This document shows positions 292 to 57,647 of a DNA stretch of 64,000 nt, piece by piece; positions within the stretch are counted from its first letter, which is position 1; each line of letters starts with the position of its first letter. This DNA is from an uncultured Chloroflexia bacterium. GTDB lineage: Bacteria > Chloroflexota > Ktedonobacteria > Ktedonobacterales > JADMIN01. The notes beneath the pieces were generated by a model, which was not told the origin of the DNA, did no database searches, and saw only the letters and a program-made list of their open reading frames with translations. Position numbers and translations under genes: made by a program. The stretch lies in assembly GCA_963718915.1 (NCBI GenBank), contig CAVRAI010000003.1, forward strand, positions 642,103-706,102, read 5' to 3'.

Positions 292-683
292 AACTACCTC
301 CGGTAGGTTGTGAGTCTGGACGCCGATGGGCCGAGGTTAGCGTACAGGTCAAAAGCATGAGATGACACCGTAAGTTGGTGAAGTTCGCGGGATTAATACC
401 GCCCTACGCCCCTGGGTGAGTATGCTCCTTGCCTGGAGTTGAGTGATGCGCTCTGCCGATGATGCTGTAGTGGGAGAGGGGCATACTCTGCTTTTGGATA
501 GCGTGGAACTGCGCTTATGGACTCACCCGGCGTATGGCGCGGATGAAGCGGACGTTGACTATGCTCAAGATGCGTCCGGAGCGGGCGGCAGGTTGTCGTC
601 TCCATAGACGCAATGCGCGTAGAGGCGACAACGACAGGTTGAAGCGCGTTCAAGCGCGTTCACGAACACGAAGGAGAAGGCAA

Positions 684-1103
684 GTGTCGCAAATGTCTCA
701 TGCATTAGGGCGACGTCCCGGCCTCGTCACGTTCGCGGCAATCATGATGTTTCTGCTCGGCGGTTTCCAGCTCACCTTTGCGCTGGTGGAGTTTTGGCAG
801 GCGACGTGGATTCTGTTCAGCCCGTATGGCTCATTCGGCGGCTACCTGTGGCTGTGGGGCATCCTCGACGGGATCTTCGCGCTGATCGCGTTCTATGCGG
901 GCGCTGATCTCCTGCGCGGCGGATCCTTCGGGCGAATCGTCGGTATCCTGGTTGCCGCGTTTAGCGCAATCCGGTGGTTCTTCTATCTGCCCGTGGCTCC
1001 CTGGATGGCAGCGGTTGTTATCGCGGTGGACATCCTGATTATCTACGGCCTCGTGGCGCATTCTGAGTATTTCGACGAGGCGAATGCCGCGAGCGCTATG
1101 TAA
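684..1103 (+). CDS. HdeD/DUF308-like (possibly DUF7144-type) integral membrane protein
   Basis: ORF 534..1103. Start moved to GTG 684 (AAGGAG at 671-676); ATG 693 is also possible. Four hydrophobic helices are visible (LVTFAAIMMFLLGGF, WLWGILDGIFALIAFYAG, IVGILVAAFSAIRWFFY, MAAVVIAVDILIIYGLV). Confidence 0.6.
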   Translation: MSQMSHALGRRPGLVTFAAIMMFLLGGFQLTFALVEFWQATWILFSPYGSFGGYLWLWGILDGIFALIAFYAGADLLRGGSFGRIVGILVAAFSAIRWFFYLPVAPWMAAVVIAVDILIIYGLVAHSEYFDEANAASAM

Positions 1104-1134
1104 AACCAGCGCGTGTTATGAAGGGACAGCTAAC

Positions 1135-1614
1135 ATGATGCGAAGACGAATGGGTCGCCGGGTGCTCGCGACGGCGGCGGTTGGTGGCGCAGCCTATATG
1201 GTGGGCAGCCATTCCGCCAAGAAGAACGCCGCGGCACAACAGCAGGAAGAGGCTCAGAACCAACAGATTGCCGATCTCCAGGCACAGCAACAGGCGCAAC
1301 CGCAACAGGCGCAGCAGCAACCGCAGCAGGCGGATACGACGCAGCAGCAGTATGTGGCGCCACAGCAGCCACCACCACAACAGTACGCTCCGCCTCCACA
1401 GCAGCAATACGCGCCACCGCCACAACAGTATGCTCCGCCACCGCCGCAGGCGGCGCCTGAGCCGCCACCCGCGATTAGCACTACAGGGGAGCCATCGGCA
1501 GACCCCCAGGTGGTGATGGATGAGCTCAAACAACTGGGCGAGCTGAAGGCGGCTGGGGTGCTGACGGATGAGGAGTTCGCGGTGAAGAAGGCGGAGCTGC
1601 TCAAGCAAATCTGA
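1135..1614 (+). CDS. SHOCT domain-containing protein with Q/P-rich low-complexity linker
   Basis: ORF 1084..1614, start taken at ATG 1135 (MMRRRMG). Has a basic N-terminus, a PPPQQYA-type repeat linker and the C-terminal LKQLGELKAAGVLTDEEFAVKKAELL SHOCT signature. Paralogue at 54707..55120. Confidence 0.75.
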   Translation: MMRRRMGRRVLATAAVGGAAYMVGSHSAKKNAAAQQQEEAQNQQIADLQAQQQAQPQQAQQQPQQADTTQQQYVAPQQPPPQQYAPPPQQQYAPPPQQYAPPPPQAAPEPPPAISTTGEPSADPQVVMDELKQLGELKAAGVLTDEEFAVKKAELLKQI

Positions 1615-1658
1615 TGATGCTGATAGTGCTGGATAGCGGCCATCGCGGGAGGTGCTGT

Positions 1659-2114
1659 ATGACCATGGGACCGCTGGAATATGTTGTGATCGAGTTTGAA
1701 GGAAACCACTTTACCGGCGAGATCCTGCCGGAACTGCGGGCGTTGCGCAATCAGGGCGTCCTGCGCGTCGTCGACCTCGTCTTCATCCAGAAAGATGAGG
1801 CCGGGAATATGATGGCGCGTGAACTCAGCGATCTCAGCGAAGAGGAGGCAAAGCCGTTTGGCCCGATGGCTGGTGACATGCTCCGCCTGCTGACGCCGGA
1901 GGATATCGATGATGTCGCGGAGTCTGTACCCAACAATAGTTCGGCGGCGGTTGCCTTGCTCGAGCATACCTGGGCCATTCACTTGAAGGAGACCATCCAG
2001 AATGCGCGTGGCAGGGTCATTAGTGCGGGCATGGTGCCAGCGGAAGATGTAGAGGCGCTGGCGTCGGAACTGGAGGCGGAGCTGGCGGCGGAACAGACGG
2101 CAATCCCGCAGTAG
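1659..2114 (+). CDS. DUF6325-like soluble protein (family name from memory)
   Basis: ORF 1614..2114, start at ATG 1659 (GGGAGG 6 nt upstream). N-terminus is MTMGPLEYVVIEFEGNHFTGEILPELRALRNQGVLRVVDLVFIQKDEAG. No hydrophobic segment. Paralogues at 54241..54672 and 40457..41005. Confidence 0.65.
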   Translation: MTMGPLEYVVIEFEGNHFTGEILPELRALRNQGVLRVVDLVFIQKDEAGNMMARELSDLSEEEAKPFGPMAGDMLRLLTPEDIDDVAESVPNNSSAAVALLEHTWAIHLKETIQNARGRVISAGMVPAEDVEALASELEAELAAEQTAIPQ

Positions 2115-2188
2115 TCTCGTAAGTAGACGATACGCATCCCGCAGCGGGCGAGAAGCGAGAGAAACAAGAGGAGCGAGAGGAGCAAAGC

Positions 2189-3712: not shown

Positions 3713-3919
3713 CCTTTCGGTGAGGCGCATTCCCCCCATTTGTATGGGCGGTGACTACCCTGCCAGACATACCTTGCGCATGAGGACAAGCCAGACCGCA
3801 CTCTATATGCTTCCCATATGCTTCCCATGTGCGCGCCAAATGCACGCGCGGCGCCAGGCCATGTGCCTGTCACGTCTGGGGTGGCAGTGTGTATGGGGAA
3901 TATGGGGAGAAACGCATCC

Positions 3920-5200: not shown

Positions 5201-5219
5201 GACGGCGGGGGAATGTCGC

Positions 5220-5792: not shown

Positions 5793-5907
5793 CGCCGCTG
5801 GAGATGGCCATTGGCGAACCAACAAGGGCCAGTGATGACCAGAGTGATGACCAGTGATGACCAGCGATAGGTGGCGCGGGCCGGTCAACGCGGGGGGAGC
5901 GCAATAC

Positions 5908-7308: not shown

Positions 7309-7354
7309 GGGCCAGCTTCCCAGGGTGGCTCATACCGAGCGCGTTAACACTTGG

Positions 7355-7771
7355 TTAACACTTGAAGGTGGACTTCAACGAGTTTACCTTGGTCTGCGCC
7401 TGGGCCACCTTGCTCTTGAAGTCCTGGAGCTTGGGGCCGACCTGACCCATCGTGGCGTTATCGGGCTGGTCTTTGATCGCCGCCGTTAGCTCATCGTTGG
7501 CCTGCTGGAGGTCGCTCATCGTTGAGCCGTCCAGTCCAGGGATCTTGCTGAGCACGCCGATCGCGGTGGTAAGTTTCTGCTGGATCGCCTTGACCTCGCC
7601 CACCGTGGTCTGATCGCCCACATTGGCGAGCTGGTTGAGCGGCTGTTCAACCGCCGCCAGGCCCTGGCATATCTTGTTCGTTACGCCCCCGGTGGAGATG
7701 GATGTGGCGCCGCAGCCCGCCAGCAGCAGGAGCGCGGCCAGCAGGATGATGGCTACACGTGAGTGACGCAT
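7355..7771 (-). CDS. Lipoprotein, function unknown
   Basis: ORF 7355..7771. Signal peptide with lipobox MRHSRVAIILLAALLLLAGC. GGAGG upstream. Confidence 0.7.
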   Translation of the reverse strand: MRHSRVAIILLAALLLLAGCGATSISTGGVTNKICQGLAAVEQPLNQLANVGDQTTVGEVKAIQQKLTTAIGVLSKIPGLDGSTMSDLQQANDELTAAIKDQPDNATMGQVGPKLQDFKSKVAQAQTKVNSLKSTFKC

Positions 7772-7868
7772 GGTGGAACCTCCTGTATTGGGCTGTTGGG
7801 CTGTTGGGCTGTCCTGGCATATCAGGCGACCCGGCTCTGCGCCGCGCGCCTGGCTTCCTCTCCCACCT

Positions 7869-7933
7869 CAGCATAGCCGCCGCCCATGCTCGCTACCCCA
7901 TCCGCAGGGTGAGTACGCCGGGCGGGTTTTCCC
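7869..7933. other. Conserved about 65-nt intergenic element, copy 1 (partner at 10757..10820)
   Basis: CAGCATAGCCGCCGCCCATGCTCGCTACCCCATCCGCAGGGTGAGTACGCCGGGCGGGTTTTCCC aligns by eye with the copy at 10757 at roughly 85 percent of positions. Confidence 0.7.
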
Positions 7934-8175
7934 TTATCTTTGTGGGAAGCCACGCAGTAAGCAGGCGGTAGTGGTGGTATGCTCGTATGGCGAGGGTACG
8001 GTGAGGGCAATAGACGTAACAAGACCAGGAGCGCCTGGCACAACCAGTGATAGACTGGAGGCATGAGCATGAGCGCGTACACTCTGGGCCGGGGACGCGA
8101 CCGTGGTATCGGACGGTCGGTTTCGGCGCAATCGGGGTCCATCCGACGACGAGGCGGGCGAGAGGAGCCTGTGCG

Positions 8176-10672: not shown

Positions 10673-10756
10673 ATCAGCGTTTCCTCCAGGAGGATCCAGG
10701 AAAGCAAGTGGCAACGCTTCCCATAGACTCGCTTCCCATAGACTCCAGTTAGACTC

Positions 10757-10820
10757 CAGCATGAACGACGCCCACGCTCGCTACCCCGTCCGCTGGGTGA
10801 GTCTGCCGGGTGGGTTTCTC
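10757..10820. other. Conserved about 65-nt intergenic element, copy 2
   Basis: CAGCATGAACGACGCCCACGCTCGCTACCCCGTCCGCTGGGTGAGTCTGCCGGGTGGGTTTCTC. See copy 1 at 7869..7933. Confidence 0.7.
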
Positions 10821-11033
10821 ATTACTCCATGCTTAGAGAATGGGTATGGTACCAGCGGCGGCGCATGCTCTCACTCCCCTTATGGCCAGTCGAATACTAT
10901 GCCACTGATCCACCCCGGCGCATGGGGTAACGATGCGATTTTCTGTCTACCTTGATTGCTGACAGCATGGCATTGGCCGCAATGGATGTAGATGTCGCAT
11001 GCTAACATCCTGTTCCTGGGAGGGAGATAGCCT

Positions 11034-13243: not shown

Positions 13244-13598
13244 AGGTCGATCTCCCTTTCGCTCCGTAGCCAGTACTCGAACTATGGCACATATGCACAT
13301 TGATCGGCGCCAGGATACGTTGTATCCATCGGCTCGCCTCCAGGCGGATCAAATCGGGGCAGGAAGCGGGTCACGCAGCCGTGGATGCCCTCGTTGCGCG
13401 TCTGAAACAGGCGCATGACTGGCCTTGCGGGTAGGTGGAAAACTCGCCGCACATACTCCACCATCAACCGGGGCGCGCATGGACCAGCCGACACACTATT
13501 GTACGGTGTCACTATAGGCGCTATAGGCGTTTTCCGAAGATTTGCTCGCCGAGAATCGGTGTAATCTCCGTTTGACCGCTAACCAGGGAGCAGAAGTT

Positions 13599-18131: not shown

Positions 18132-19463
18132 ATGTCACAGAGCACCCTGGCTGCTTTGGCCGCGGCCCTCGCCTGGGTGGCGTTGATCGCCTATGCCGTG
18201 CTCGGGGGCGCGGATTTCGGCGGCGGGATCTGGGATTTGCTGGCCAGAGGACCGACGGCCGAGCGTCAGCGCGCGGTCATAGCCCGTGGCATGGGACCTG
18301 TCTGGGAGTCCAACAACGTCTGGCTCATCTTTGTGCTGGTGGTCACCTGGACGGCTTTCCCCATTGTCTACGCTGGGATCTCGACCGCTCTCTTCATCCC
18401 TATTACACTGGCCGTCATTGGCATTGTGCTGCGCGGGGCGGCGTTCAGCTTTCGCTCGAACTACGGCCGGGAAATCGGGTCAGGCGTGCGCTGGGGCTAT
18501 GCCTTCAGCATCGCGAGCACAATCACACCATTTCTCTTTGGCACGATGGCTGGGGCGCTGGCGAGTGGTAACATTCGTGTCTCAACTGGACCATCTCTGC
18601 AGGTACAAGCCAACCCGTGGACGACCTGGACGACCCCCTTCGCCCTCGCCTGTGGCCTGTTTGCGGTCGCGCTCTGCTCGGTCCTTGCGGCGACTTACCT
18701 CACCATTGATGCACGCAAGGCGGGAGACAACGCAGTCGCCGAGGGCTTCCGGCTGCGTGCGCTCATCGCTGGCGCTGTGACTGCGGCGCTGGGGGCGCTG
18801 TCGGCGGTGCTCGCGATCTCCGAGGCGCCCACCTTCTGGCAAGGGTTGATCGGCAAGGCCCTGCCATTCACCATCGCCGCAGTGGTGATTGGCCTGGCTA
18901 CGGCCGCCGCGTTGCTGCGTCACCTCGATTATCTTGCCCGCGTCCTGGTGGCAGCGGAGACGGCGTGTATCTTCCTGGCCTGGGGTGTTGCCCAATGGCC
19001 GTATTTGATCGTGCCAGATGTGACGGTAGATAATGCCGCTAGTCCAGCCTCTGTGCTCGGACCGCTGTTGATTGTCTCCCTCCTTGGTCTGGTAATTCTC
19101 TTGCCTTCGCTCTGGTATCTTTTTACAGTCGTCAAGCGTACCCCGAGGCCCAGCACACCTTCGGCTGGGGCTAGGGTCACGACGGCTGCCTTCGTCGCAT
19201 CACTCCCGCTCGCCGAGCCTGAGGCGCCGTCACCGCGCACCGAACCGATGTCCGCGCAAGCCTCGGCGGTTGTGTTGCCGGGTGGCCCAACCATGCAACG
19301 GATTGTGCCAGTGCTCACAGCATTGTTCGCGATCGCCGCCGCCCCCCTCATTACCAGTATGCTAGAAGGCATGAGTCGCGGCATGCATCGTGGCATGCAG
19401 CAGGGCCTTGAGCGTGTCCAGCGTCGGCGCAACCAACGGCATCGGAGCGCGCACGCACATTAA
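18132..19463 (+). CDS. cydB: Cytochrome bd-type quinol oxidase subunit II with a C-terminal extension of about 100 aa
   Basis: LAWVALIAYAVLGGADFGGGIWDLLA is typical of CydB. At 443 aa it is longer than usual, and the extra tail contains one more hydrophobic helix (IVPVLTALFAIAAAPLITSML). Confidence 0.85.
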   Translation: MSQSTLAALAAALAWVALIAYAVLGGADFGGGIWDLLARGPTAERQRAVIARGMGPVWESNNVWLIFVLVVTWTAFPIVYAGISTALFIPITLAVIGIVLRGAAFSFRSNYGREIGSGVRWGYAFSIASTITPFLFGTMAGALASGNIRVSTGPSLQVQANPWTTWTTPFALACGLFAVALCSVLAATYLTIDARKAGDNAVAEGFRLRALIAGAVTAALGALSAVLAISEAPTFWQGLIGKALPFTIAAVVIGLATAAALLRHLDYLARVLVAAETACIFLAWGVAQWPYLIVPDVTVDNAASPASVLGPLLIVSLLGLVILLPSLWYLFTVVKRTPRPSTPSAGARVTTAAFVASLPLAEPEAPSPRTEPMSAQASAVVLPGGPTMQRIVPVLTALFAIAAAPLITSMLEGMSRGMHRGMQQGLERVQRRRNQRHRSAHAH

Positions 19464-20180: not shown

Positions 20181-20289
20181 ATGTCCGCATATGGAGTATA
20201 TGGAGCATATGAAGCATATGGAGCGAGCGCGACGAGCACTGTCTCCGTCGCGCTCTCATGCATTGCCAGTGGTGTGTGGCGGCAGCGGC

Positions 20290-20988
20290 CTAGGCGGGGC
20301 TTGGCCCGGTGTCGCTGCCAGATGCGGTAGCCTCGGGAGGAGGCGTTTCGCCACTGGCCGGAGTAGCCGTGGAAGTGTTTGGGGTTGATGGGCCAGGCGT
20401 CGCCGCGCTCTGCGTGGATGCGCTCGACGCGGATGTGTCGGTCGCTGTCGCTGCTGCTGAGCCACCGGCTACCGGAACCTCGACAGGCTGCTCCGCATCG
20501 AGCTGCGCGGCGATATCTGCCCGCACCGCCTCGGTGACGACGTCCGCGCCATACTGCTGAAGCTCAGCCTCCACCTCGCGCACCCAGACGTCCTCGATCA
20601 CGGCGATCAACGCCGAGGTGTTGGGCTTCAGTCCCTTGCCGACCTCGCGCAGACGGTCGTCTGGAAAACCGGCGTCGTGCAGCCGGGCAGAGAACCCGCC
20701 GACGGCCGCCCCTACCGCAGCGCTTGCCAGGATCGATGGCGGGAAGATGAGGCCAACCACCCCACCGATGACACCACCAATCACCGCGCCTTTGCCGCCA
20801 CGCATGTCGGCGGTTTCTTTGAAGTGGAGCTTGCCGTCCCCATCCTTCCAGAGGACGGCGGCGTTGCGGATGCCAATCAGCCGATCCTTTTTGGCCTGTT
20901 TGAGTTCGCCCAGCGCCTTCTCAGCGCCATCCTCGTCTTTGAACGCGGCGAGTACGACTTCTACGGGTACATCGCTCTCTTTGCTCAT
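20290..20988 (-). CDS. DUF1269-related membrane protein (orphan member)
   Basis: ORF 20290..21015, start at ATG 20988 (AGGAGG upstream). VEVVLAAFKDEDGAEKALGELKQ, Gly-zipper GKGAVIGGVIGGVVGLIFPPSILASAAVGAAVGGFS, then PNTSALIAVIEDVW. Low-complexity S/T/A tail. Confidence 0.65.
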   Translation of the reverse strand: MSKESDVPVEVVLAAFKDEDGAEKALGELKQAKKDRLIGIRNAAVLWKDGDGKLHFKETADMRGGKGAVIGGVIGGVVGLIFPPSILASAAVGAAVGGFSARLHDAGFPDDRLREVGKGLKPNTSALIAVIEDVWVREVEAELQQYGADVVTEAVRADIAAQLDAEQPVEVPVAGGSAAATATDTSASSASTQSAATPGPSTPNTSTATPASGETPPPEATASGSDTGPSPA

Positions 20989-22919: not shown

Positions 22920-23001
22920 CTACCACCTTTCAACGCGCTCCTCTATCCATCGATCCATCGCGGCTCAAGCGACCTGCTCTTCTGTGTCTTGCGTTTCAGC
23001 C

Positions 23002-26118: not shown

Positions 26119-26338
26119 ACAGAACCTCCTCCATCGAGACGGGGCACTCCAGCGAACTGGGGTCTCCGTCGGGCGGCCAAACCGCGTAGCTGCGTAGAGA
26201 TGCAACCAGTGTAGCCCCAATCCGCGACATAGAACCCATGCGCAGAGATAGACCTGGCGATGGGTTTTCTTCCTGTCGCAGAGCGTGGAAATGCCTATCC
26301 CTGTGGTGAGGTTGGGTGTATCCCTGTGGCATATCCCG

Positions 26339-35562: not shown

Positions 35563-36352
35563 TCAGACGTTGGCTTCCGCCGCCGGTGGCTTTGGTGTCG
35601 GTTGGGTTGGCTGGGTTGGCTGGGTTGGCTGGGGTCGCTGGCCCCAACTAGCGCGCAGAATGTGCAGGCTCACGACGAAGACCCATATCGGCAGGAGAAA
35701 CTCGATCCACGGCGCGAAGTTGATCGTCAGCAACAGGATGAGCGCGCATGTGTATCCGAAGATCGCATACCATCGGGGCAGAAAGGCGGTGCGCACCGCG
35801 AGGGTGGCGGTTGCGATCATGAAGACGCCAGCCATGCGCATCGCATAGATGGTCAGGAAGGAGCCGGTTACCTGAAGCTGGAACTTCCAGACGGCGTTTC
35901 CGGCTGATCCGGGAACGGAGTCTCGCGACGTTCGTCGCCAGGACGCCTCCCACCGCCGCGGACGCGAAGAGCATCGCGATAAACAGCAGTCCACTGCCCA
36001 GGAAGACAGTTGAGAAGAAGCGGTCTTCGCGGTCTCCCAAGTGGTCGCGCACAACTCCGATGAACCAGAGAAACGCGATGCCCGCAAAGGGTATGAGATT
36101 CAGGGCAAGCGCGACGATGTTCCGGTGAAAGGAGTCGGCAAGCCAGGAGCTGAGGTCACGCGAGCTAGCCATGACGGAGAGCCTGATGATGAGCAGGCTA
36201 ATCGAGAGTAGCACCGAGAAGATGATGCCAGCAATCGCGGCCGCGCGTGGCGTCCTGACCGCATGGCGCGCTTCGGGTAGCACCGTACTCACCCCGTCCC
36301 CCTTGTCGTGCATGTCATGCATGTCATGCATGAAGAGATGGTCACCGTACAA
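35563..36352 (-). pseudogene. Multi-TM membrane protein of unknown family, apparent frameshift near 35900-35945
   Basis: ORF 35648..36352 holds the N-terminal TMs up to AAVGGVLA. ORF 35563..36087 holds the C-terminal TMs (SFLTIYAMRMAGVFMIATATLAV...). They are in different frames of one gene. HDM and PTQ tandem repeats sit at the two ends. Confidence 0.5.
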
Positions 36353-36704: not shown

Positions 36705-37931
36705 ATGGATTCGACCGACCGTCTTGATGGCGCAGGCAGCACAGGTGGTGTAGCGCCCAGAGTTGACCCATCCGCGCGGCGTCGTTTCTCCATCACGATC
36801 ACGACGCGCAGCCTCCTGCTGGCGGCGGCTATCGGCGTCGCCATCCTGGTTGGCGTGATTGTCATCACGCAGGCGCTGGGGACGTTGATCTCCCTTGTGC
36901 TGGCCATCATTCTTGGCGAGGCCATCCGGCCAGTGGTGGCCTGGTTGCGGAAGTATCGGATTCCCGCCCCACTGGCGGTTTTACTCATCTATGTGGTGGG
37001 CGCTGTGGTTTTCGGCGTGCTTATCTGGCTGCTGCTGAACCCAATCATCAGCCAGATCAACAATCTGACCACCCACCTCCCGGAGTATCTCCAGCGCCTT
37101 CAGCAACACGCAGACGATCTGGAGCGGCAACTGCGTGCTCAGAGCGCGCTCTCGGGCCTCATCGACACGATCTCCCAATCGCTGGCGAACCTCGCGCAAC
37201 AGTTTATCCCCAGGCTGATCGCGGTGCCCTTGGGGCTGCTAACTGGCGTCTTCAGCCTCTTCATCAATGCCGTGATCCTGCTGACGATGACCCTCTTCTG
37301 GTTTTTGGCTACGGACGAGCTCAAGCCGTTCGTCGTCGGGCTTTTCCCGGAAGCCTCGCAAGACCATGCGTCGCAGGTATTCACCGAGATAGGGCGGGCG
37401 TTCGGCGGCTACATTCGGGGCACGCTGATCGCTATGCTCTTGATTGGGAGCTTGACTGGCGCCGGCCTTGCGCTGCTCGGGGTGCCCTACGCCTTGCTGC
37501 TGGGGATCCTGGCCGGGTTCACCGAGCTCCTACCGTACCTGGGGCCGTGGATTAGTGGGACCGTCTCGGTTCTGGTTGCGCTAATTACGGTGGACCCGGG
37601 CAAAGCACTCCAGGTGGTCTTGTTGTTTATCTTGATCCAGAATATCGAGGGCAATGTGATAGAGCCGTTGGTGATGAGCCGTGCGGTGAAGATCAATCCG
37701 CTGGTGGTGATCGTTGCGGTGCTGATCGGGCTGGACCTGTTGGGAATCGTTGGCGCGATCCTGGCGGTGCCCGTTGCCGCAGCTATCCAGATCATCATAT
37801 TGCGCGTGCTGGCGCCAGCGATCCGTCGGTCGTCGGCATCCTCCGCGCCACCTCCCGTCGAGGTGATGACGGTCGAGTCGACCGCGCCACCCGATGCCAG
37901 CGTGGCGGGCCAACCTGTGACGGAGACGTGA
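36705..37931 (+). CDS. AI-2E family transporter (PerM/UPF0118)
   Basis: ORF 36567..37931, start at ATG 36705 (GGAGAGGAG upstream). FGGYIRGTLIAMLLIGSLTGAGLALLGVPYALLLGILAGFTELLPYLGPWISG. Confidence 0.85.
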   Translation: MDSTDRLDGAGSTGGVAPRVDPSARRRFSITITTRSLLLAAAIGVAILVGVIVITQALGTLISLVLAIILGEAIRPVVAWLRKYRIPAPLAVLLIYVVGAVVFGVLIWLLLNPIISQINNLTTHLPEYLQRLQQHADDLERQLRAQSALSGLIDTISQSLANLAQQFIPRLIAVPLGLLTGVFSLFINAVILLTMTLFWFLATDELKPFVVGLFPEASQDHASQVFTEIGRAFGGYIRGTLIAMLLIGSLTGAGLALLGVPYALLLGILAGFTELLPYLGPWISGTVSVLVALITVDPGKALQVVLLFILIQNIEGNVIEPLVMSRAVKINPLVVIVAVLIGLDLLGIVGAILAVPVAAAIQIIILRVLAPAIRRSSASSAPPPVEVMTVESTAPPDASVAGQPVTET

Positions 37932-39000
37932 TGCTAGCTATTGCCTCTCTCCTGCTTTTGCGCTGTCCGGTGCGGCTTCGGTGGCTACCGGTGGCTTCGG
38001 TGGCTTCGGTGGCTTCGGTGGCTTCGGTGGCTTCGGTGGCTTCGGTGGCTTCATCCGCATGAAGGCGCGCTGCCTGCAGGATCGCCGGAATATCCCCGCC
38101 CACCAGCCGCCGCCCCGCGATCCATGAGTTCAGCTCCGCGCCGAGGAGCAGGATGAAGCCGAGATAGTAGAAGAAGATGAGGATCACCACGGCGAATCCC
38201 GCGACGGAGCCGTAGTTGTCTGGCCGCAGGAAGCGGCTCACATAGAGGGGAAAGAGGCTGATGTATGGAACCAGCAGCACCGTGGCGAGCAGCGTCCCCG
38301 GAATAACCTGCCGGAGGCGAATGCGCCGGTTGGGCACGATGAGATAGATGGCGCCGAACAGGATAAACGCGGAGAGCACTGCCACGATATTCCCCAGCAC
38401 GCCAGCGAGCGCCGCCTGACCAGAGTCCGCCAGGTATGGATCGACGAGTCTGACGATGGCCGAGGGCAGCGAGAAGGCCAGCGCGATGAGTGGCGTGAGA
38501 ATGAGATACAGCGCGAGCATGCCAAACGCCATCAGTTGTTTCGGGATCAGATCGCGCCCGCGCACGCGGAAGATGATTCCGAAGCAGGTCTCGATGACCA
38601 TGAACAGGTTCGACCCGCCAAGCACCGACCCCACCAGGCCAATGAGGAAGAGCAGCCCGACATTCGTGGTCAGCTGGTTCGCGACCGCATGAAATATCTC
38701 GGCTCCGCCAGGGATAACCTGTGCAAACACCTGCTCGATATGCGCATAGATGCTGGAAGCATGGTCGCCAAGGATGAGTCCCACGGCAGCGAGCAAGAGG
38801 AGCAAGATCGGGAAGAGCGACATCAGGAGGTTATAAGCCAGCATCCCCGAGAGATTGAAGACCCAATCGTCATTGAGTTTGGTCCAGAAGTCGAGCAGGG
38901 GCTGGATCGTCTTGAGAACGCGCCGCACCAGGCTGAATCGCATCCAGGGCTGTTGTTGTTCCATTGGGTCGGCCTCGTGGAAGCGCTCGCGCGCCGTCAC
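37795..39000 (-). CDS. YihY/BrkB family membrane protein with an (EAT)n repeat tail; the annotated 3' end is probably an artefact of a frame change in the repeat
   Basis: FWTKLNDDWVFNLSGMLAYNLLMSLFPILLLLLA is typical of YihY. The GTG start at 39000 overlaps the upstream protease stop (GTGA). The tail overlaps the convergent AI-2E gene by 137 nt. Confidence 0.8.
   Translation of the reverse strand: MTARERFHEADPMEQQQPWMRFSLVRRVLKTIQPLLDFWTKLNDDWVFNLSGMLAYNLLMSLFPILLLLLAAVGLILGDHASSIYAHIEQVFAQVIPGGAEIFHAVANQLTTNVGLLFLIGLVGSVLGGSNLFMVIETCFGIIFRVRGRDLIPKQLMAFGMLALYLILTPLIALAFSLPSAIVRLVDPYLADSGQAALAGVLGNIVAVLSAFILFGAIYLIVPNRRIRLRQVIPGTLLATVLLVPYISLFPLYVSRFLRPDNYGSVAGFAVVILIFFYYLGFILLLGAELNSWIAGRRLVGGDIPAILQAARLHADEATEATEATEATEATEATEATGSHRSRTGQRKSRREAIASITSPSQVGPPRWHRVARSTRPSSPRREVARRMPTTDGSLAPARAI
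37974..38052. repeat. 9-nt tandem repeat (ggcttcggt), about 8 units, one 10-nt variant unit at 37983-37992
   Basis: Read directly from the sequence. Encodes the EAT repeats of the YihY tail on the minus strand. Confidence 0.9.
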
Positions 39001-40286: not shown

Positions 40287-40321
40287 CATAAGCAATAAGC
40301 AATAAGCAATAAGCAATAAGC
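40287..40321. repeat. 7-nt tandem repeat (aataagc) x5
   Basis: cataagc aataagc aataagc aataagc aataagc, read directly. Lies upstream of the preferred protease start. Confidence 0.9.
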
Positions 40322-40456: not shown

Positions 40457-41005
40457 TTAGTGCATCTGCTGTGACTGCGAGGTATCGGTCTGGGTAGCCG
40501 CCATATCAGCCGCGGCGAGCCTGGACCCCATAGCGATCAAGGTCTCGGGGTGCACCATGCCCTGCGCCAGTACCACGCCGCCGGTCGACTGCAGCGCTTC
40601 TTTTAGCGGGATAGCCCAGCGATGCTCGACCAGCACCAGCACGCCCGTCGTCCCTTCCGGGATATCTTTGGCGATGTTCTTGATGTCATCGGCAGAGAGG
40701 CCGAAGTCGTGGTCGGAGAATGCCACAGCGCCCATTTCCGCGCCGGTTTCCACGCCTTCATCACCGGCGGCGCCATAGCCCAGCAGCCCCCCGATGACGG
40801 CGCCCATTTCCGCGCGCTGGTCGGTGGTGAGGTCGCTCGCGCCGAGCGATACCACTGTGCCATCCTTTTCTTTCTGTATGGCGAGCGCATCGAGCACGCG
40901 GATGGTACCCGACTGACTTGCCTTCTCCAACTCCTGAGCAATTCGCCCTTTCAGATTCTCATTTGGCAATCCCAATACGAAGAGTTGAACCGGACCCAGA
41001 GTCAT
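40457..41005 (-). CDS. DUF6325/DUF1269-related protein, intermediate form with a short Gly-rich insert
   Basis: ORF 40457..41113, start at ATG 41005 (AAGGAGA upstream). MTLGPVQLFVLGLPNENLKGRIAQELEKASQSGTIRVLDALAIQKEKDG, insert GAVIGGLLGYGAAGDEGVETGAEMGAV, then GTTGVLVLVEHRWAIPLKEAL. Confidence 0.6.
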   Translation of the reverse strand: MTLGPVQLFVLGLPNENLKGRIAQELEKASQSGTIRVLDALAIQKEKDGTVVSLGASDLTTDQRAEMGAVIGGLLGYGAAGDEGVETGAEMGAVAFSDHDFGLSADDIKNIAKDIPEGTTGVLVLVEHRWAIPLKEALQSTGGVVLAQGMVHPETLIAMGSRLAAADMAATQTDTSQSQQMH

Positions 41006-41619: not shown

Positions 41620-41958
41620 TTACGACGGCGAAGGCGAAGGACTGGGCGCGGCTCCCGGAGCTTGCCCCGCTGGCGCCTGTGGAGGCGCGGCCTGCGGCGC
41701 GGCTGATTGCGGTATCCCCGGCATTCCTGACATTCCTGGCATTCCCTGCACCGCCACTGGCGCCATGGGATTTGCGGGCCGTGTGACGAGGTAGGCCAGC
41801 GCGCCGAGCCAGGGGAAGAAGATGATCAGCGCCACCCACAGCCCCTTCTGCCATCCAACAAGGTCTGGCCGTTTGACCGCATCCGCCAGCACCAGAAACC
41901 AGATGATGGTGAGAGGTATGAAGATGAATAGCAGCCAGAACCAATCCCAGGCAGTCAT
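41620..41958 (-). CDS. PLDc_N (PLD nuclease N-terminal) domain small membrane protein with Pro/Gly-rich tail
   Basis: MTAWDWFWLLFIFIPLTIIWFLVLADAVKRPDLVGWQKGLWVALIIFFPWLGALAYLV matches my recollection of the PLDc_N pattern (K..W...I...P.LG...YL). Confidence 0.65.
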   Translation of the reverse strand: MTAWDWFWLLFIFIPLTIIWFLVLADAVKRPDLVGWQKGLWVALIIFFPWLGALAYLVTRPANPMAPVAVQGMPGMSGMPGIPQSAAPQAAPPQAPAGQAPGAAPSPSPSPS

Positions 41959-42105
41959 GGCAGACCTCCACTGTTGCTCGTTTGTTGCTCGTTGTCCGCG
42001 CCGTCGCAGCCATGTCGAAGCATAACCAGGAACCGCCCGGCGCGCATCGCATATGGGGAGTGTTTGCGAAGTCAGGTTCGCGCGCTCCGTCGGGAGAGCG
42101 CCCCA

Positions 42106-46290: not shown

Positions 46291-47289
46291 ATGAACAAAA
46301 CACTCACCCGCACAATCTGTTGCAAACTGGATGTTGACGGCCATGAAGTTGTCTTGGCCGCGACGCAACGCGCCTTCAACGCGGCAGCGACCTGGATTGC
46401 GCAGATATGCTGGGATGAGGGCATCACGAACACCAACACTGCCCACCATCGGGTCTATGGCGAGACGCGCCTGAACTTCGGCCTGGGCGCGCAATTGGCT
46501 GTCTGCGCCAGAGCCAAGGCGATTGAAGCCATCAAGGCGGTCAAGGCCAAGCGTCGCGAACAGACCGACACCTGCCCGCGCTTCGGGCCACGTGGCAGCA
46601 TTCGCTACGACGCCCGCACCTATCGCCTGATGAGTCTTGACCGTGTCTCGCTTAACACCCTGGATGGTCGTATCGTCTGCCGTCTGCTGTTGGGCGCGCG
46701 TCAGCATGAGATGCTGGTAGACCCGGCATGGACGATTGGCGGTGCTGATCTGGTCTGGCGGCGTGGGGTCTACTACCTGCATGTCACGCAAAGCCGCGAA
46801 GCGCCGGATGTCTTGGAGCCAAATAGTGGCACACATAGTGGCACACTGGGTGTTGACCTGGGCATTGTGAATCTGGCCACCGATAGTGAGGGTGAGTCGT
46901 TTAGCGGCACGACGGTGAAGAAAGCCGTCGTCTCGTGCAAGGCAATCGCTCTCGAAGACCTCAGCGGAATCCGAGAGCGGGTCACGGTTCGTCACGAACA
47001 TCGCTACGAACGGCATTCCTGGGCCTTCTACCAATTGCGCTCCTTTCTCACCTACAAAGCCGCATGGGCCGACGTGTCGCTGCATCTGGTAGACCCTCGG
47101 AATACCAGCCGCACGTGCTCGGCTTGTGGCCATTGTGAGAAGGCGAATCGGAAGAGCCAAGAGTCGTTCCTCTGCCAGCGATGTGGCTTCGCACTCAATG
47201 CGGACTACAATGCCGCCATCAACATCTCGCGAAAAGAATCCTATCGGGCCGCAGTCAATCGGCCTATGGCGTCACCCCTCGCGGGGTAG
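46291..47289 (+). CDS. tnpB: TnpB (IS200/IS605-family OrfB, RNA-guided nuclease type) with an internal deletion of about 50-55 aa
   Basis: RuvC-I GVDLGIVNLA (D189), RuvC-II AIALEDL (E222), zinc ribbon TCSACGH...CQRCG, RuvC-III NADYNAAINI (D305). D-to-E spacing is 33 aa versus about 85 in full-length TnpB. No tnpA is adjacent. Confidence 0.8.
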   Translation: MNKTLTRTICCKLDVDGHEVVLAATQRAFNAAATWIAQICWDEGITNTNTAHHRVYGETRLNFGLGAQLAVCARAKAIEAIKAVKAKRREQTDTCPRFGPRGSIRYDARTYRLMSLDRVSLNTLDGRIVCRLLLGARQHEMLVDPAWTIGGADLVWRRGVYYLHVTQSREAPDVLEPNSGTHSGTLGVDLGIVNLATDSEGESFSGTTVKKAVVSCKAIALEDLSGIRERVTVRHEHRYERHSWAFYQLRSFLTYKAAWADVSLHLVDPRNTSRTCSACGHCEKANRKSQESFLCQRCGFALNADYNAAINISRKESYRAAVNRPMASPLAG

Positions 47290-53531: not shown

Positions 53532-54107
53532 ATGAGCGATCTGGTTGCCATCACATACCCAGATATCAATCAGGCACAGAAAACACTCGATACGCTGAAG
53601 CGCATGGTGGTTGAGCATCTGCTTGAGCTAGACGATGCCGTCTATGTCACCAAGGATAGTAACGGCGCGGTGGATATGCATCAGATGATTAACCTGCCCG
53701 CGGCGGGCGCGGCGACTGGCGGCGCGACCGGCGCCCTCTGGGGAACGCTGATCGGCCTGCTCTTCCTCTCGCCACTCGCGGGGGCTGCCATTGGGGCAGC
53801 GGTTGGCGCGGGCACGGGCGCCATCGCGGGAAAGATGAGCGACTATGGTATTGACGATAACTTTGTCCAAGACCTGAGCGCCCATATGCCGCCGAATAGC
53901 TCGGCCATCTTCGTCCTGGTGCGCAATGTGACGGTGGATAAGGTGATCCCAGAGATCAGCAAATATGGCGGCACGGTCATGCGTACCTCGCTCTCGGACG
54001 ATGCGGAACAACGCCTTCAGGCAGCGCTCGCGCAACGATCAACCGCTGGGGCGTCGGCCGCCGCAACTCCACCGACAACCACTGACACGCCATCGCAGCC
54101 AGCGTAG
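53532..54107 (+). CDS. DUF1269 domain-containing membrane protein (cassette B)
   Basis: AAGGAGAAG upstream. MSDLVAITYPDINQAQKTLDTLKRM..., Gly-zipper GAATGGATGALWGTLIGLLFLSPLAGAAIGAAVGAGTGAIAG, YGIDDNF...PNSSAIFVLV. Confidence 0.8.
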   Translation: MSDLVAITYPDINQAQKTLDTLKRMVVEHLLELDDAVYVTKDSNGAVDMHQMINLPAAGAATGGATGALWGTLIGLLFLSPLAGAAIGAAVGAGTGAIAGKMSDYGIDDNFVQDLSAHMPPNSSAIFVLVRNVTVDKVIPEISKYGGTVMRTSLSDDAEQRLQAALAQRSTAGASAAATPPTTTDTPSQPA

Positions 54108-54240
54108 GCTGGTTAGAAGACAAACAGTCTGAGAAAAGTCTGAGAAAAGCCGGAGGCATCGTGCCATAGATGCCTCTTGCGGAACATAAGCAGGCGCGCG
54201 AGAGCTACGCGCGCCTCGCCAGATGATTGCGAGGCCTGAG

Positions 54241-54672
54241 ATGGGACTTGGCCCGGTCGAATATGTCATGATTGAGTTTCCAGGCGCTACCGAGATTGGC
54301 GACATCGAGCCAGCGCTTCAGGAACTGGTGTCCTCAGGGACTGTCCGCATTATCGACCTGATGTTTATCAAGAAAGATGCGGAGGGGCACATCCAGGCGC
54401 TGGAGGTTGACCAACTCGACAGCGTGAGCGCTCACCGGTATGAGGAGCTGGACGCCGAGGTCGACGACCTGGTGAATATGGAAGATATCGAAATCGCTGC
54501 GGCGGAACTATTGCCTGATAGCATCGCGGTGGTGCTGGTCTGGGAGGATGCCTGGGCCAAACGGTTCGGGGAGACCATGCGGGCCGCGGGCGGGCGTGTG
54601 GTGGAAATCGAGCGGATTCCTAGCGAGGTGGTCGAAGCGGCTATGAGGGCAAGCGTGGGAGCGGATGCGTAG
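54241..54672 (+). CDS. DUF6325-like soluble protein (cassette B)
   Basis: ORF 54223..54672, start preferred at ATG 54241. MGLGPVEYVMIEFPGATEIGDIEPALQELVSSGTVRIIDLMFIKKDAEG. Confidence 0.7.
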   Translation: MGLGPVEYVMIEFPGATEIGDIEPALQELVSSGTVRIIDLMFIKKDAEGHIQALEVDQLDSVSAHRYEELDAEVDDLVNMEDIEIAAAELLPDSIAVVLVWEDAWAKRFGETMRAAGGRVVEIERIPSEVVEAAMRASVGADA

Positions 54673-54706
54673 AGCCTGAACTGCGGTAGAGAGGACGAAC
54701 CCGATT

Positions 54707-55120
54707 ATGATGCGACGAGGTGGAGCACTGGGACGGCGCGGCCCTGGCCTGCTTGGAACGATGGCGCGAACCGCGGTGATCGCGGGGACGGCCACGGCGG
54801 TCTCCAAAGGGGTGAGTGGTTCAATGAATCAACGCGCCGCACAACAACAGACGGCGCAGCAACAGCAACAGCAGGCGGCATTTGACGCGGGCTACCAGCA
54901 GGCGCAGACGCAAGAACAGGCGCAACAACAGCAACAGCAACAGCAGCAGATGCAGGCGGCTCAGGCTCAGGCTGGGGCGCCACAGGCCGCTAGCCCGGCC
55001 TCGACTACCGATGCCATGATCGCGCAATTGCAACAACTGGCCGAGCTACAGAAGCTGGGGATTCTGACGCCAGACGAATTCGCCCAGCAGAAGGCGAGGG
55101 TTTTAGGCGGCGCGAACTAA
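54707..55120 (+). CDS. SHOCT domain-containing protein with poly-Q linker (cassette B)
   Basis: MMRRGGALGRRG..., Q-rich linker, C-terminal IAQLQQLAELQKLGILTPDEFAQQKARVLG. Confidence 0.75.
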   Translation: MMRRGGALGRRGPGLLGTMARTAVIAGTATAVSKGVSGSMNQRAAQQQTAQQQQQQAAFDAGYQQAQTQEQAQQQQQQQQQMQAAQAQAGAPQAASPASTTDAMIAQLQQLAELQKLGILTPDEFAQQKARVLGGAN

Positions 55121-55216
55121 AAGTATCCAGATGATACTGATTTGGGATAAGGTGTTGTGCTATTACAACGCCGTAGCATGACGCAGGTTTACAAAATAGG
55201 AGGGGCACGCCAGGAG

Positions 55217-55590
55217 GCAGGCGACTGAAGTCGCGCCTGAAGGGCCTGCCTGCTGCGCCTGCTGCGCACGCTCCGCCACAAAACCCGCCTGCGCGGGTTG
55301 CAGAGACGCACTCCCAACGCGTGTCGCGCGCGTGTCGCGCCGGGCAGCGTCTGGCTCTGGGGAGTCCGCGACGGCGGACTTGGTGGCCGCAGGCCCTTCA
55401 GGCGCGGTTTGAACCGCCCGCGCCCCTCCGCGCATGGCCCTCGTACTTTCTAAAACCACATCAGGCTGCGGCGAATGGGGCGGAGCGGCGGGAAATTCGC
55501 CGTAGCGTTCACGCTACGGCCTGCCTCGCCCGCCACGACGTGTGGGGTTCGGACGAAAAAGTGAACGTTCATTACGCTACGGCCAGCATC
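55217..55590 (+). repeat. REP-like multi-hairpin array, copy A
   Basis: Chain of GC-rich stem-loops: GCGAC-tgaa-GTCGC, CCCGC-ctgc-GCGGG, GTCCGC-gacg-GCGGAC, GCGG-tttgaa-CCGC, GGCGAAT...ATTCGCC, CCGTAGCG-ttca-CGCTACGG. Its reverse complement recurs at 61691..61953. Confidence 0.75.
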
Positions 55591-55686
55591 CTCAAACACC
55601 AACCCCAGATGTGGATACTGCGAAAAGCGGGGGCGTGATAGTCTGTCATAATGGCTATCATACCCCCGCTCGGTGATTCGGGCTTT

Positions 55687-57027
55687 CTAGTTCGCGGCAA
55701 GCGGGACGGTGAACCAGAAGGTCGAGCCTTCGCCGGGCACGCTCTCGACGCCAACTTTTCCTCCCATCTGTTCGACCAGCTGGCGACAGATGAACAGGCC
55801 GAGGCCAAGTCCCTCGGCGCTAAATTTGCTGGACCCGCTGGCGCGGTAAAAGCGCTCCCACACACGGGGCTGATGCTCCAGGGCGATACCGACACCATGA
55901 TCGCAGACAGCCACCCGCGCCTCGCCGTCGCCGCGCTCCAGCCGCACCTCGACCGGCTGGACATTTGGTGAATACCTCAGCGCATTGGAGAGATAGTTGC
56001 CGACCACCTGCGCGATGCGATCCGCATCGGCCACGACGGGAATGGCCTCCGTGGGTGATTCCAGATGGATGATTCGTCTGCGCCACACCAGCCGCTGGCC
56101 AGCGACCGTATCATGCAGGATCTCGCTGAGGTCGCAGCGCGACGTATGTGTCTCGGCGATGCCGACGCGAATGCGCGTGATATCGGCAAGATCGGAGAGC
56201 AGGCGCTCTGCCATGTTGGTATTGCGGTCGACGAGCGCGAGAGCCGCCGTGGCGCGCGCCACATGCATCGAGGTAGAGTCGGAGGCCATGCGGCTATCCT
56301 CCACCCGCTTCAGCTGGCGCTGCGCGATCTGTGTGCCCAGTTTCATGGTTGTGAGTGGCCCGCGAAGCTCATGGACGATCTGCATGAGCGCCGCTTCGGT
56401 GTTTTCGCTATCCTGGCGCAGTTGTCCCACCGTGTTCGCCCATGCCTCGCGCTCATACATCAGTCGCCCATGATCGAGCGCCAGCGCGACCAGTTGCGCC
56501 AGCGCGCGTGTCCGCAAGAGAACATCCGGCATGACACGCTTACCAAATCGAAACTCGACGATCAACGCGCCCAGCCGTCGCTCGCTGACCAAGAGCGGCA
56601 GCACGAGCCGGACGATTCTGCGTGTGGTGGAGTCGGGAGAGGCAGGATCATGGGTATCACCTTCCTCCCGAACCGCGTGCAGTCCCGTCGAACGAGAGAT
56701 GGATTCGTTGCCTGCCTCGATTTCGGGGATGTCGGCGCATATCTGATCCCACCAGGCGGATGCGCGGCCCGGCGCAACGCCAGCCGTAGCGATCAAGCGT
56801 GGCCGCCTGGCGCGCGCTGACCTCAAAACGATCCCCACCGTCTCGCTATAGAGGGTATAGCGAACCAGATTGGCAAGCCATGTTGCGAGGCCAGTCTCGT
56901 CACGCCAATCGTCGGCGCCAACCAGTGTTGTCTGGCGAGCATCGGTGGGCACGGCAAAACTTACCGTTCCATGTGCCCATCGTCCCTGGTCTCTTCTCGC
57001 ATGCATACCACACCTCCCGGGGTTCAT
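55687..57027 (-). CDS. Cytoplasmic sensor histidine kinase (GAF-like N-domain, HisKA, HATPase_c)
   Basis: H-box [12 protein letters not shown]-box [11 protein letters not shown]-boxes DHGVGI and [18 protein letters not shown]. No TM segment seen. Confidence 0.85.
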
Positions 57028-57338
57028 TAGTTGAGGGTTCGTTCAGCGCGCACTGTCTGCGGTAAACGCGCGCGGGAGACGCATCACGGCGCTCAATGAG
57101 GATGCGCCCGACGGTTTCTCCTGCTGTGCAGCCAGGGCCTGTCGCTCCAGCGTGTGTAACGTCAACTGAAGGGAGGCTCCTGCCGCACTGCTCACTCTAA
57201 AACGAGAATCCCTGCGCCGCATGCAACAAAGGTTGCAAAAATGAAGTGGCAAGTTTTGTGAGAATACCCCTTATGGTGATGCGGTTTTGTATGATAAAGT
57301 ACAGATTGCAGCCTATTCGTCGTAGGAAAACAGCCTGT

Positions 57339-57367
57339 TTGTATGTGTTAACAGGATCAACATACAA
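57339..57367. promoter_or_regulatory. Candidate operator: inverted repeat TTGTATGT-N13-ACATACAA in an AT-rich divergent intergenic region
   Basis: Read directly. Lies between the kinase (minus strand) and the response regulator (plus strand), in the most AT-rich stretch of this part of the window. Confidence 0.3.
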
Positions 57368-57580
57368 CCATCTTAACAACTTGCTTCCTGTATCTGTGCA
57401 TCGCGCTCTCAGGCCAGAAGATAGCAAATGGTATACATGGGGAAATGCTCGACAGGCGGGTGTGATCGCACAAGGCGTTGTAGGGGTGTAGGTGTGTAGG
57501 TGTATGCAGGAGGAAGACTGTGTATCAAGCGCCGCGAAGGTGTAGCTGATAGTTGCGGCCTGCGTGCGTTTGACGTTCCC

Positions 57581-57647
57581 CGATAACAGCGCGATAACAG
57601 CGTGGCATATCTGGCGTATCTGGCATCTTTGGCATCTTTGGCATCTT
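57581..57647. repeat. Two adjacent tandem repeats: 11-nt (cgataacagcg) x2 and 9-nt (tggcatctt-like) x5
   Basis: Read directly. About 200 nt upstream of the response-regulator start. Confidence 0.85.

Follow-up and report, generated by a model that had tools for sequence, protein, structure and literature searches.

Short tandem duplications as probable scars of a mutational process raised in Ktedonobacterales

What has filled the spacers between the genes of one Ktedonobacterales genome with short head-to-tail duplications? The question is raised by a stretch of 64,000 nucleotides (nt) of contig CAVRAI010000003.1 (positions 642,103 to 706,102; assembly GCA_963718915.1) from an uncultured Chloroflexia bacterium; this whole stretch is referred to here as the window, and each run of two or more head-to-tail copies of a short unit as an array. 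An earlier note, made from the letters alone, had interpreted the arrays as a genome-specific mutational signature. Our data lead us to consider it probable, though well short of certain, that the arrays are scars of a mutational process that is raised in Ktedonobacterales and strongest in this genome, in which (i) short duplications are born blunt, (ii) slippage changes their copy number, and (iii) selection decides where they survive. The G+C content of the window is uniform (0.56-0.66), and the nearest relatives of its GH15-type trehalase gene (33580-35514), at 90% amino acid (aa) identity, are metagenome-assembled genomes (MAGs) of Ktedonobacterales in the phylum Chloroflexota.

Array detection relied on Tandem Repeats Finder (TRF), together with a count of exact duplications with at least two full copies of a primitive unit. 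TRF recovered all 17 arrays listed in the earlier note, each within 1-5 nt of the coordinates given there, so that the arrays themselves are real. The list was incomplete in that approximately 15 further arrays were found (including those starting at 2150, 10739, 18618, 19368, 22945, 41972, 46823, 55248, 55318 and 61091 and those at 61870-61937; arrays are designated by their first nucleotide, Table 1), and the run of arrays does not end at 57647 and continues to 62835. With Markov simulations of order 1, 3 and 5 (100 each) as the chance model, exact duplications with units of 9-15 nt are in clear excess, with 25 loci in 64 kb as against a simulated mean of 0.41-0.57 and a maximum of 3. The excess is restricted to units of 8-15 nt: eight duplications with 9-nt units were observed and 0.42 expected, seven with 11-nt units and 0.02 expected, and three each with 13- and 14-nt units and none expected, whereas 7-nt units show no excess (4 observed, 5.3 expected) and exact duplications with units of 16-60 nt are absent from the window.

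Random models underestimate the repeats in real DNA, and the class of exact duplications was therefore also counted in 1.6 Mb of loci that had been fetched for other reasons, 1.3 Mb of which come from other phyla. Arrays per 10 kb amount to 4.2 in the window, 2.25 in close Ktedonobacterales relatives, 0.96 in distant Ktedonobacterales, 0.98 in Actinomycetota, 0.19 in Acidobacteriota-type loci and 0.38 in Binatia-type loci, and the density in the window is 4-20 times that of the 1.3 Mb from other phyla. When noncoding DNA is delimited by a single crude codon-usage gene caller applied to all groups, the corresponding noncoding densities are 14.8 in the window, 4.5 in close relatives, 3.5 in distant Ktedonobacterales, 1.35 in Actinomycetota, 0.66 in Acidobacteriota-type loci and 1.36 in Binatia-type loci. 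Units whose length is not a multiple of three occur 16 times in the 64 kb window, 4 times in 102 kb of close relatives and 11 times in 1.3 Mb of other phyla. The signature is thus genome-specific only in part: the density is about three-fold higher in this genome, but the noncoding densities are also raised across Ktedonobacterales. Indels scored as tandem or not in pairwise BLAST alignments point the same way (10 of 150 in Ktedonobacterales as against 0 of 41, 0 of 350 and 4 of 139 in controls), although the sensitivity of this comparison is poor at 13% divergence, where the event at 36304 was split, and its support is weak.

The crude gene caller also gives a coding fraction of approximately 0.77-0.79 for the Ktedonobacterales loci (L001-L011, L087-L092 and the window) and of 0.82-0.91 for the other phyla sampled.

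The units are unrelated in sequence; no recurring unit or consensus was seen, and a window-wide repeat search found no family that joins the arrays. The arrays do not fit a dispersed family of short repeats of the short tandemly repeated repetitive (STRR) or repetitive extragenic palindromic (REP) kind: every unit differs and a boundary motif is lacking. Known RNAs were considered as well and rejected, given that the arrays have no Rfam match at the gathering threshold and contain no tRNA. Descriptively, the arrays fit the class of tandem repeats or variable-number tandem repeats (VNTRs): they are arranged head to tail in at least two copies with high identity between copies, and their copy number varies between related genomes. 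Approximately five pairs of neighbouring arrays lie within 100 nt of each other, and about three would be expected from random placement in spacers by our estimate, a difference that is not significant.

The distribution of the arrays relative to genes was determined on an annotation in which starts were refined by Shine-Dalgarno (SD) context and Pfam domains were added. On this annotation the window is 82% coding, 16% spacer and 1.8% a decayed copy of an insertion sequence (IS) of the IS982 family. Outside this copy, 19 arrays are noncoding and four coding although noncoding DNA makes up 16% of the sequence (binomial p = 4.6e-12), in agreement with the earlier statement that the arrays lie mostly outside coding regions; expressed as arrays per 10 kb, the densities are 18.6 in spacers, 0.76 in genes and 53 in IS982. 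Among the arrays previously taken as coding, that at 36304-36332 is probably not: an SD-preceded GTG start follows 12-20 nt downstream of it, and four relatives have a single copy there. Conversely, array 35603, counted here with the spacers, makes better sense as the C-terminal tail of a gene with a +1 frameshift in this genome. The four to five coding arrays all have 9- or 12-nt units, i.e. multiples of three, and are located in tails or linkers, beyond Pfam domains or at their edges, whereas seven of the 19 noncoding arrays (about one third) and none of the six IS982 arrays have units of such lengths. This double split, between coding and noncoding DNA and between unit lengths that preserve the reading frame and those that do not, is what is expected for selection acting on a uniform process, and the data support this reading.

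The earlier note had also emphasized the proximity of arrays to start codons. Several arrays do adjoin starts, but 5' spacers are no denser in arrays than convergent 3'/3' spacers, the values being 2.0 arrays per kb in divergent, 1.6 in tandem and 4.1 in convergent spacers; nearness to starts therefore only mirrors where spacer DNA lies. Effects of individual arrays on leaders and protein tails are nevertheless plausible.

Some of the genes that carry arrays have peculiarities of their own. The membrane-protein gene 35563-36292 (minus strand) has a 1-nt insertion near 35870 (GCGAGACTCC vs GCG-GACTCC) relative to four relatives, in which the orthologues have a single intact frame of 246-263 aa; this insertion is either a real frameshift that makes the gene a pseudogene or a long-read consensus error. 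On the minus strand, the BrkB-family gene overlaps the end of the convergent AI-2E transporter gene by 136 nt (37795-37931), and its tail past the (EAT)7 array is a basic, low-complexity read-through, so that the protein may have been lengthened by repeat expansion or by loss of a stop codon. The open reading frame (ORF) 46291-47289 (plus strand; 332 aa), which holds a 12 nt x2 duplication, has a low coding score and only the C-terminal Cas12f1-like TNB domain of TnpB (3e-24), and is probably a truncated or decaying gene for an RNA-guided nuclease of the IS200/IS605 or IS607 type.

A record of the process is preserved in the decayed IS982 copy. The element was assigned to this family because its product is a DDE transposase with DDE_Tnp_1 and DDE_Tnp_1_3 domains, some close homologues of which are named 'IS982 family transposase' by their sources; its terminal inverted repeats (Table 1) are found at both ends and are conserved in loci L081, L082 and L084, and the copy is missing from this site in the relatives L088-L090. 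Six arrays lie inside it, one more than had been counted previously. These arrays (14 nt x2, 13 nt x3.7, 11 nt x2, 12/13 nt x4.8, 10 nt x2 and 14 nt x3.1) break the transposase frame, the longest remaining fragments being 86, 139 and 91 aa. Collapsing the extra copies in silico restores one frame, save for a 1-nt deletion, and the reconstructed protein of 299 aa shares 91% identity with the intact transposase P0001 (294 aa; PF01609 and PF13612). Aligned as DNA with three intact homologues, the element has at each array an insertion where these have a single copy. In total, no fewer than nine duplications and a point deletion have taken place within 1.07 kb, and the IS982 copy is a neutral-DNA record of the duplication process. 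Because the nearest intact homologue is approximately 10% diverged in DNA, these events are not datable against substitutions. Specific targeting of IS982 is not claimed, since its higher array density, about 2.9-fold that of spacers, is explainable by constraint on spacers.

Elsewhere in the window, between two convergent genes, lies a GC-rich element of approximately 340-470 nt (55121-55600; core 55190-55535) in place of which L089, L090 and L092 have about 16 nt. It folds as a long imperfect hairpin (-187 kcal/mol, z = -3.9) composed of several short stem-loops and looks like a small non-autonomous mobile or palindromic element. Partial copies are present on both sides of IS982, at 61696-61977 (inverted) and 63107-63181 (direct). 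Private tandem duplications set these paralogous copies apart; a paralogue lacks the 11-nt duplication and has expansions of its own.

Comparison with relatives places the arrays in time. Four loci (L011, L001, L002 and L003) are collinear with 23.6-44.3 kb of the window at 85-88% nt identity, and the stretch from 42 to 64 kb has collinear metagenome contigs in L087-L092 (78-90%). At 36304, 54126, 57581 and 40288, relatives with 85-88% nt identity have a single copy; in the case of 54126 these are L090 and L092, and the array at 40288 is absent from L011 and L001, while L003 has a private 7-nt duplication at the same spot. Relatives have non-repetitive sequence of similar length at 37974, an unrelated 12 nt x2.5 array at 61091 (L088) and short repeats of their own at 35600 (L001 and L002). 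Given that private duplications of unrelated sequence occur in the same spacers and linkers of relatives, the process is ongoing in several lineages. Copy-number variation, the occurrence of which between strains had been proposed as a check, is seen between species at orthologous sites: the 41972 unit is present in two copies in the window, four in L011 and two degenerate ones in L001; array 41722 has three copies in the window and in L001 and one in L011; and array 57603 has 5.6 copies in the window and 1-3 degenerate copies in relatives, the spacer 57479-57652 as a whole containing 1-3 degenerate copies or none in these. In total, these comparisons show that the arrays are young, derived and recurrent, and lineage-specific at orthologous sites.

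How the arrays are born can be addressed at their junctions, because an array born between short direct repeats exceeds two units by the length of the repeat. In 22 two-copy arrays, the match beyond two units has a mean of 0.77 nt, as against 0.76 ± 0.27 nt in blunt duplications made in silico at random positions of the window (P = 0.47); it is 0 nt in ten arrays, 1 nt in six, 2 nt in four and 4 nt in one. The earlier note had named microhomology-mediated duplication and slippage as candidate causes. Microhomology-mediated birth does not agree with a junction match at chance level that is zero in 10 of 22 arrays; slippage can account for later changes in copy number but not for birth without homology. 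A motif at the array edges was sought and none was visible (n approximately 20), which argues against a site-specific nuclease with a simple site. The broader interpretation of a mutational signature, as opposed to a repeat family or a functional element, agrees with the unrelated units, the young and lineage-specific arrays, the fastest build-up in the dead IS982 and the selection-like split in unit lengths.

Combining the junction data with the positional and comparative data, we suggest that a stretch of 8-15 bp would be duplicated head to tail at an arbitrary position, with no need for homology at the junction. Blunt junctions and the size range together point to a staggered double-strand break, with nicks 8-15 nt apart on opposite strands, followed by fill-in of the overhangs and end-joining as the likeliest route of birth; the ceiling of about 15 nt might then be the longest duplex between nicks that can still melt apart. 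Subsequently, slipped-strand mispairing adds or removes copies and shifts the register, giving rise to arrays of x3 to x9, to nested arrays and to differences between species. This step is shown by the comparison with relatives, and features of the slippage type include arrays of up to x8.7, the register-shifted nested arrays 5831/5843, 10715/10739 and 62707/62726 and the A-A-G-G order at 62707. Finally, selection purges out-of-frame events in genes, so that survivors are found in spacers of all types, in tails and linkers with units that are multiples of three and, most densely, in the dead IS982, as the observed distribution shows. From 19 exact arrays in 10.2 kb of spacer (1.9e-3 per nt) and a lifetime of an exact 2 x 11 nt array of about 1/22 substitutions per site (1/(2 x unit)), the rate is roughly 0.04 births per neutral substitution, or about one per 25, an order of magnitude that ignores contraction and constraint.

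Whether this lineage has a eukaryote-like, insertion-generating repair signature undescribed for bacteria, in which staggered breaks from clustered nicks, or from cuts by transposon-encoded RNA-guided nucleases (TnpB/IscB), of which this group has many, would be filled in and end-joined, is a bolder proposal that we hold to be doubtful. Ku together with the primase-polymerase of LigD might be the bacterial counterpart of the eukaryotic machinery, and is mentioned as a suggestion only.

Several other explanations share some of this evidence. Replication slippage or microhomology-mediated duplication could in principle account for both birth and expansion if the polymerase, after re-annealing at a short direct repeat, copies the interval a second time. 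The arrays of more than two copies, the nested register shifts (5831/5843, 62707/62726) and the copy-number differences between species all fit such a mechanism; however, with junction homology at chance, a match of at least 4 nt in only one of 22 arrays and none in ten, and with no reason provided for the sharp 8-15 nt window or for a lineage-specific rate, we consider it unlikely as an account of birth as well as expansion. Published microhomology-mediated duplications have 5-8 bp at each end (PMC8639346). Alternatively, the arrays could be transposon footprints, i.e. paired target-site duplications left after cut-and-paste excision of an IS and blunt rejoining, or after a staggered cut of the target whose repair involved no integration. 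Several IS families (IS4-type) make target duplications of 8-13 nt, in the range of the units here. The blunt junctions and the mobile-element-rich character of the lineage, with IS982 and a TnpB-like ORF in the window, would be in line with this idea, as would the many ISC/IS605 copies of Ktedonobacter racemifer (PMC4810608). Yet the unit lengths are spread in a single broad distribution over 8-15 nt and do not fall into the discrete sizes of families, six arrays in one 1.1-kb IS would need at least six insertions followed by clean excisions, and IS ends or remnants lie beside none of the arrays; for these reasons we rank footprints below fill-in and end-joining and give them a low probability. 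We know of no established route by which excision of a bacterial IS leaves both target copies.

A functional origin, in which the repeats are regulatory or phase-variable tracts (contingency loci) selected to tune promoters, leaders and protein tails, would explain why arrays 638, 2150, 7788, 22945, 36304 and 41972 lie 11-40 nt upstream of starts and next to the SD, and why three species have kept the 41972 unit in common, at variable copy number. On the other hand, unrelated units imply no single binding factor, convergent 3'/3' spacers are as dense in arrays as 5' spacers, the highest density is in the dead IS982, and the coding arrays are in frame in tails and linkers, where they are unable to switch genes on or off as contingency loci do. 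We therefore regard selected function as very improbable for the arrays in general; the 41972 array, just upstream of an SD, could be an individual functional exception. Least probable of all, to the point of being barely credible, is an artefact of assembly or consensus ('stutter'). It is true that the source contig measures 910,535 bp and so is probably part of a long-read MAG, and that the two 1-nt frameshifts may be consensus errors. A separately assembled Logan contig (L086; run ERR11563127) nevertheless matches the window over 1763 nt with one mismatch (99.94%) and no gap across arrays 7343 and 7788, arrays 41972 and 41722 are present at the same sites in independent assemblies of other species, and similar arrays occur in relatives assembled by other pipelines. 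Moreover, artefacts would ignore the reading frame, yet the units of all coding arrays are multiples of three.

Besides the probable long-read origin of the contig, several points weigh against a raised mutational process as the source of the arrays. Only two arrays (7343 and 7788) are independently confirmed within the same species: a look-up of same-species alleles by exact protein gave no match for 10 of 12 proteins and a single useful contig, L086, and a metagenome scan for such alleles returned other species only (85-88% aa identity). The genome-wide rate is an extrapolation from data that cover 64 kb of this genome and approximately 230 kb from relatives, and the relatives are mostly short-read metagenome contigs that may break at polymorphic arrays and in that way exaggerate the difference from the window. 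Singleton indels polarised in a 5.9-kb MAFFT block of four species amount to six insertions and seven deletions, i.e. no net insertion bias, in a comparison that is underpowered and mostly coding. The array density of IS982, about 2.9 times that of spacers (Poisson p = 0.02), may point to something beyond a uniform process or merely to spacers that are partly constrained. Finally, no gene for Ku, LigD or another end-joining protein was seen in the DNA analysed, and a tblastn search with a Ku query had no match in the 1.6 Mb of loci, a result that is uninformative.

By analogy, the signature is best compared with the small-tandem-duplication signature of eukaryotic end-joining. In mammalian cells, small tandem duplications arise when staggered breaks are filled in and then end-joined (PMC8355091), and for rice tandem duplications with little or no microhomology a staggered (patch-mediated) break route has been invoked (PMC8639346). 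The eukaryotic duplications resemble the arrays in being short and head to tail, in having minimal microhomology at the junctions, in affecting unrelated sequences and in being read as a genome-wide mutational signature. They differ in that the size window here is narrower (8-15 nt) and that the link to a break or repair enzyme is here inferential. To our knowledge, the 53BP1-Shieldin, CST and Pol alpha machinery of mammalian fill-in does not exist in bacteria. Flap-endonuclease defects, as in yeast rad27 and in Pol I 5'-nuclease mutants of Escherichia coli, also cause a genome-wide rise in short duplications, which are flanked by short direct repeats and have a wider size range. The likeness is that one altered DNA-processing step raises short duplications throughout a genome; unlike in these mutators, the arrays here have no flanking direct repeats.

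Among bacterial repeats, the VNTR or minisatellite loci used in multiple-locus VNTR analysis (MLVA) are similar in having head-to-tail units of about 6-15 nt, a position that is mostly intergenic or in frame and a variable copy number (here at 41972, 41722, 40288 and 57603). Such loci are few in typical genomes, and the comparator loci have 0.2-1 per 10 kb in total. In contrast, the noncoding DNA of the window has about 19 per 10 kb, the majority of the arrays are newborn (x2), and six are carried by a pseudogene. The STRR heptamer repeats of heterocystous cyanobacteria are likewise short tandem intergenic units of filamentous bacteria with large genomes, but consist of a few defined unit sequences at many loci, whereas every locus here has its own unit. 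Microhomology-mediated tandem duplications, described in fission yeast and rarer in E. coli, have 5-8 bp identical at each end of segments of tens of bp (PMC8639346). They are, like the arrays, frequent, reversible, short and a source of subclonal variation; here, however, junction homology is at chance level and the units measure 8-15 nt.

In bacteria, homopolymer slips and a deletion bias usually dominate the indel spectrum. If our interpretation is correct, and blunt 8-15 bp duplications rank among the main kinds of mutation in this lineage, it would provide a natural system for studying staggered-break repair in bacteria, the origin of spacer DNA and of low-complexity protein tails, and the decay of dead mobile elements. 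If, in addition, the proposal of a eukaryote-like repair signature holds, new spacer sequence and low-complexity tails would be made continuously, idle mobile elements would be inactivated and deletion bias would be countered, which might contribute to the low coding density of these loci (~78%). In the open-access literature we found no paper that ties Ktedonobacteria to tandem duplications, and none on bacterial duplications of the LigD type. In practical terms, the arrays offer a ready set of hypervariable markers with which to type strains of an uncultured soil group, and they call for caution in annotation because they shift start codons, C-termini and pseudogene calls in these genomes.

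Table 1. Tandem duplication arrays of the window and the decayed IS982-family copy. Positions are those of the window; xN, number of copies.
Feature	Position	Strand	Context
10 nt x2.5	638..662		22 nt upstream of SD-preceded GTG 684 start, DUF7144 gene
9 nt x3.8 (80% matches)	2150..2183		Overlaps SD of DUF1269 gene, start 2189
11 nt x2.5	3805..3832		Spacer upstream of PLD-like gene, start 3920
Nested 12 nt + 10 nt, ~3.8 copies	5829..5868		Upstream of DUF2254 gene, start 5908
11 nt x2 exact	7343..7364		Takes in stop codon of minus-strand gene 7355-7771; protein unchanged; identical in L086
8 nt x3.1 exact	7788..7812		17 nt upstream of start 7771, just 5' of SD; also in L086
15 nt x2.1 (10715-10745) overlapping 11 nt x1.9 (10739)	10715..10759		Divergent spacer
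9 nt x2 exact	13512..13529		70 nt upstream of NDH-2 gene start 13599
9 nt x2 in-frame	18618..18635	+	Inside cytochrome bd subunit II
12 nt x2.7 in-frame	19368..19399	+	C-terminal tail of cytochrome bd subunit II (CydB), past Pfam domain (residues 3-325)
9 nt x4.2	20187..20224		Convergent (3'/3') spacer
8 nt x2 exact	22945..22960		26 nt upstream of PPK2 gene start 22919
9 nt x4.3, encodes (PTQ)n	35600..35641	-	C-terminal tail of membrane-protein gene 35563-36292; other short repeats there in relatives
9 nt x3.2	36304..36332		12-20 nt upstream of probable GTG start; single copy in 4/4 relatives
9 nt x8.7, encodes (EAT)7	37974..38052	-	C-terminal tail, BrkB/YihY-family protein (domain residues 44-295)
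7 nt x4.9 exact	40288..40321		Upstream of HtrA-like protease gene
9 nt x2.7 in-frame (GMPGMSGMPG)	41722..41745	-	Tail of PLDc_N protein
11 nt x2	41972..41993		13 nt upstream of start 41958
12 nt x2 in-frame	46823..46846	+	Inside TnpB-like ORF (Cas12f1-like TNB domain)
11 nt x2.2	54126..54149		19 nt after one stop, 92 nt before next start
9 nt x2.2 (55248-55267) + 11 nt x2.1 (55318-55340)	55248..55340		Inside palindromic ~340-nt inserted element
8 nt x3.1 (57479-57503), 11 nt x2 (57581-57602), 9 nt x5.6 (57603-57652)	57479..57652		Shared divergent spacer
9 nt x2.7 in-frame	61091..61114	+	Linker of MalT/LuxR-type regulator
Compound 9/14/18 nt arrays	61870..61937		40 nt from IS982 end
Decayed IS982-family copy	~61980-63110	-	Terminal inverted repeats ACGTGAGTTCGGGATAA
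14 nt x3.1 exact	62274..62317		Inside IS982 transposase gene
10 nt x2 exact	62327..62346		Inside IS982
12/13 nt x4.8	62351..62409		Inside IS982; two LFG-type units at site in intact homologues
11 nt x2 exact	62628..62649		Inside IS982
13 nt x3.7	62707..62754		Inside IS982; copy pattern A A G G, at least 3 events needed
14 nt x2 exact	62807..62835		Inside IS982; source of transposase's first frameshift

The window contains repeats of other kinds as well. Small membrane or stress-type proteins are encoded by three to four paralogous cassettes, at 1084-2770, 20290-20988, 40457-41005 and 53532-55120; these proteins comprise DUF6325, DUF1269 (glycine-zipper) and SHOCT-domain proteins with repetitive linkers rich in Q, A and P, and longer imperfect TRF repeats of 15, 21 and 24 nt sit in these linkers. 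A 68-nt direct repeat (81% identical) is present in two divergent spacers, at 7869-7936 and 10757-10824; neither of its strands folds better than shuffled sequences, and it may represent a promoter or operator region common to both spacers, or what is left of a small element. Lastly, a 188-nt inverted repeat (74% complementary; 25945-26132 and 28218-28405) corresponds to two small paralogous ORFs on opposite strands that flank the genes at 26339-27963.

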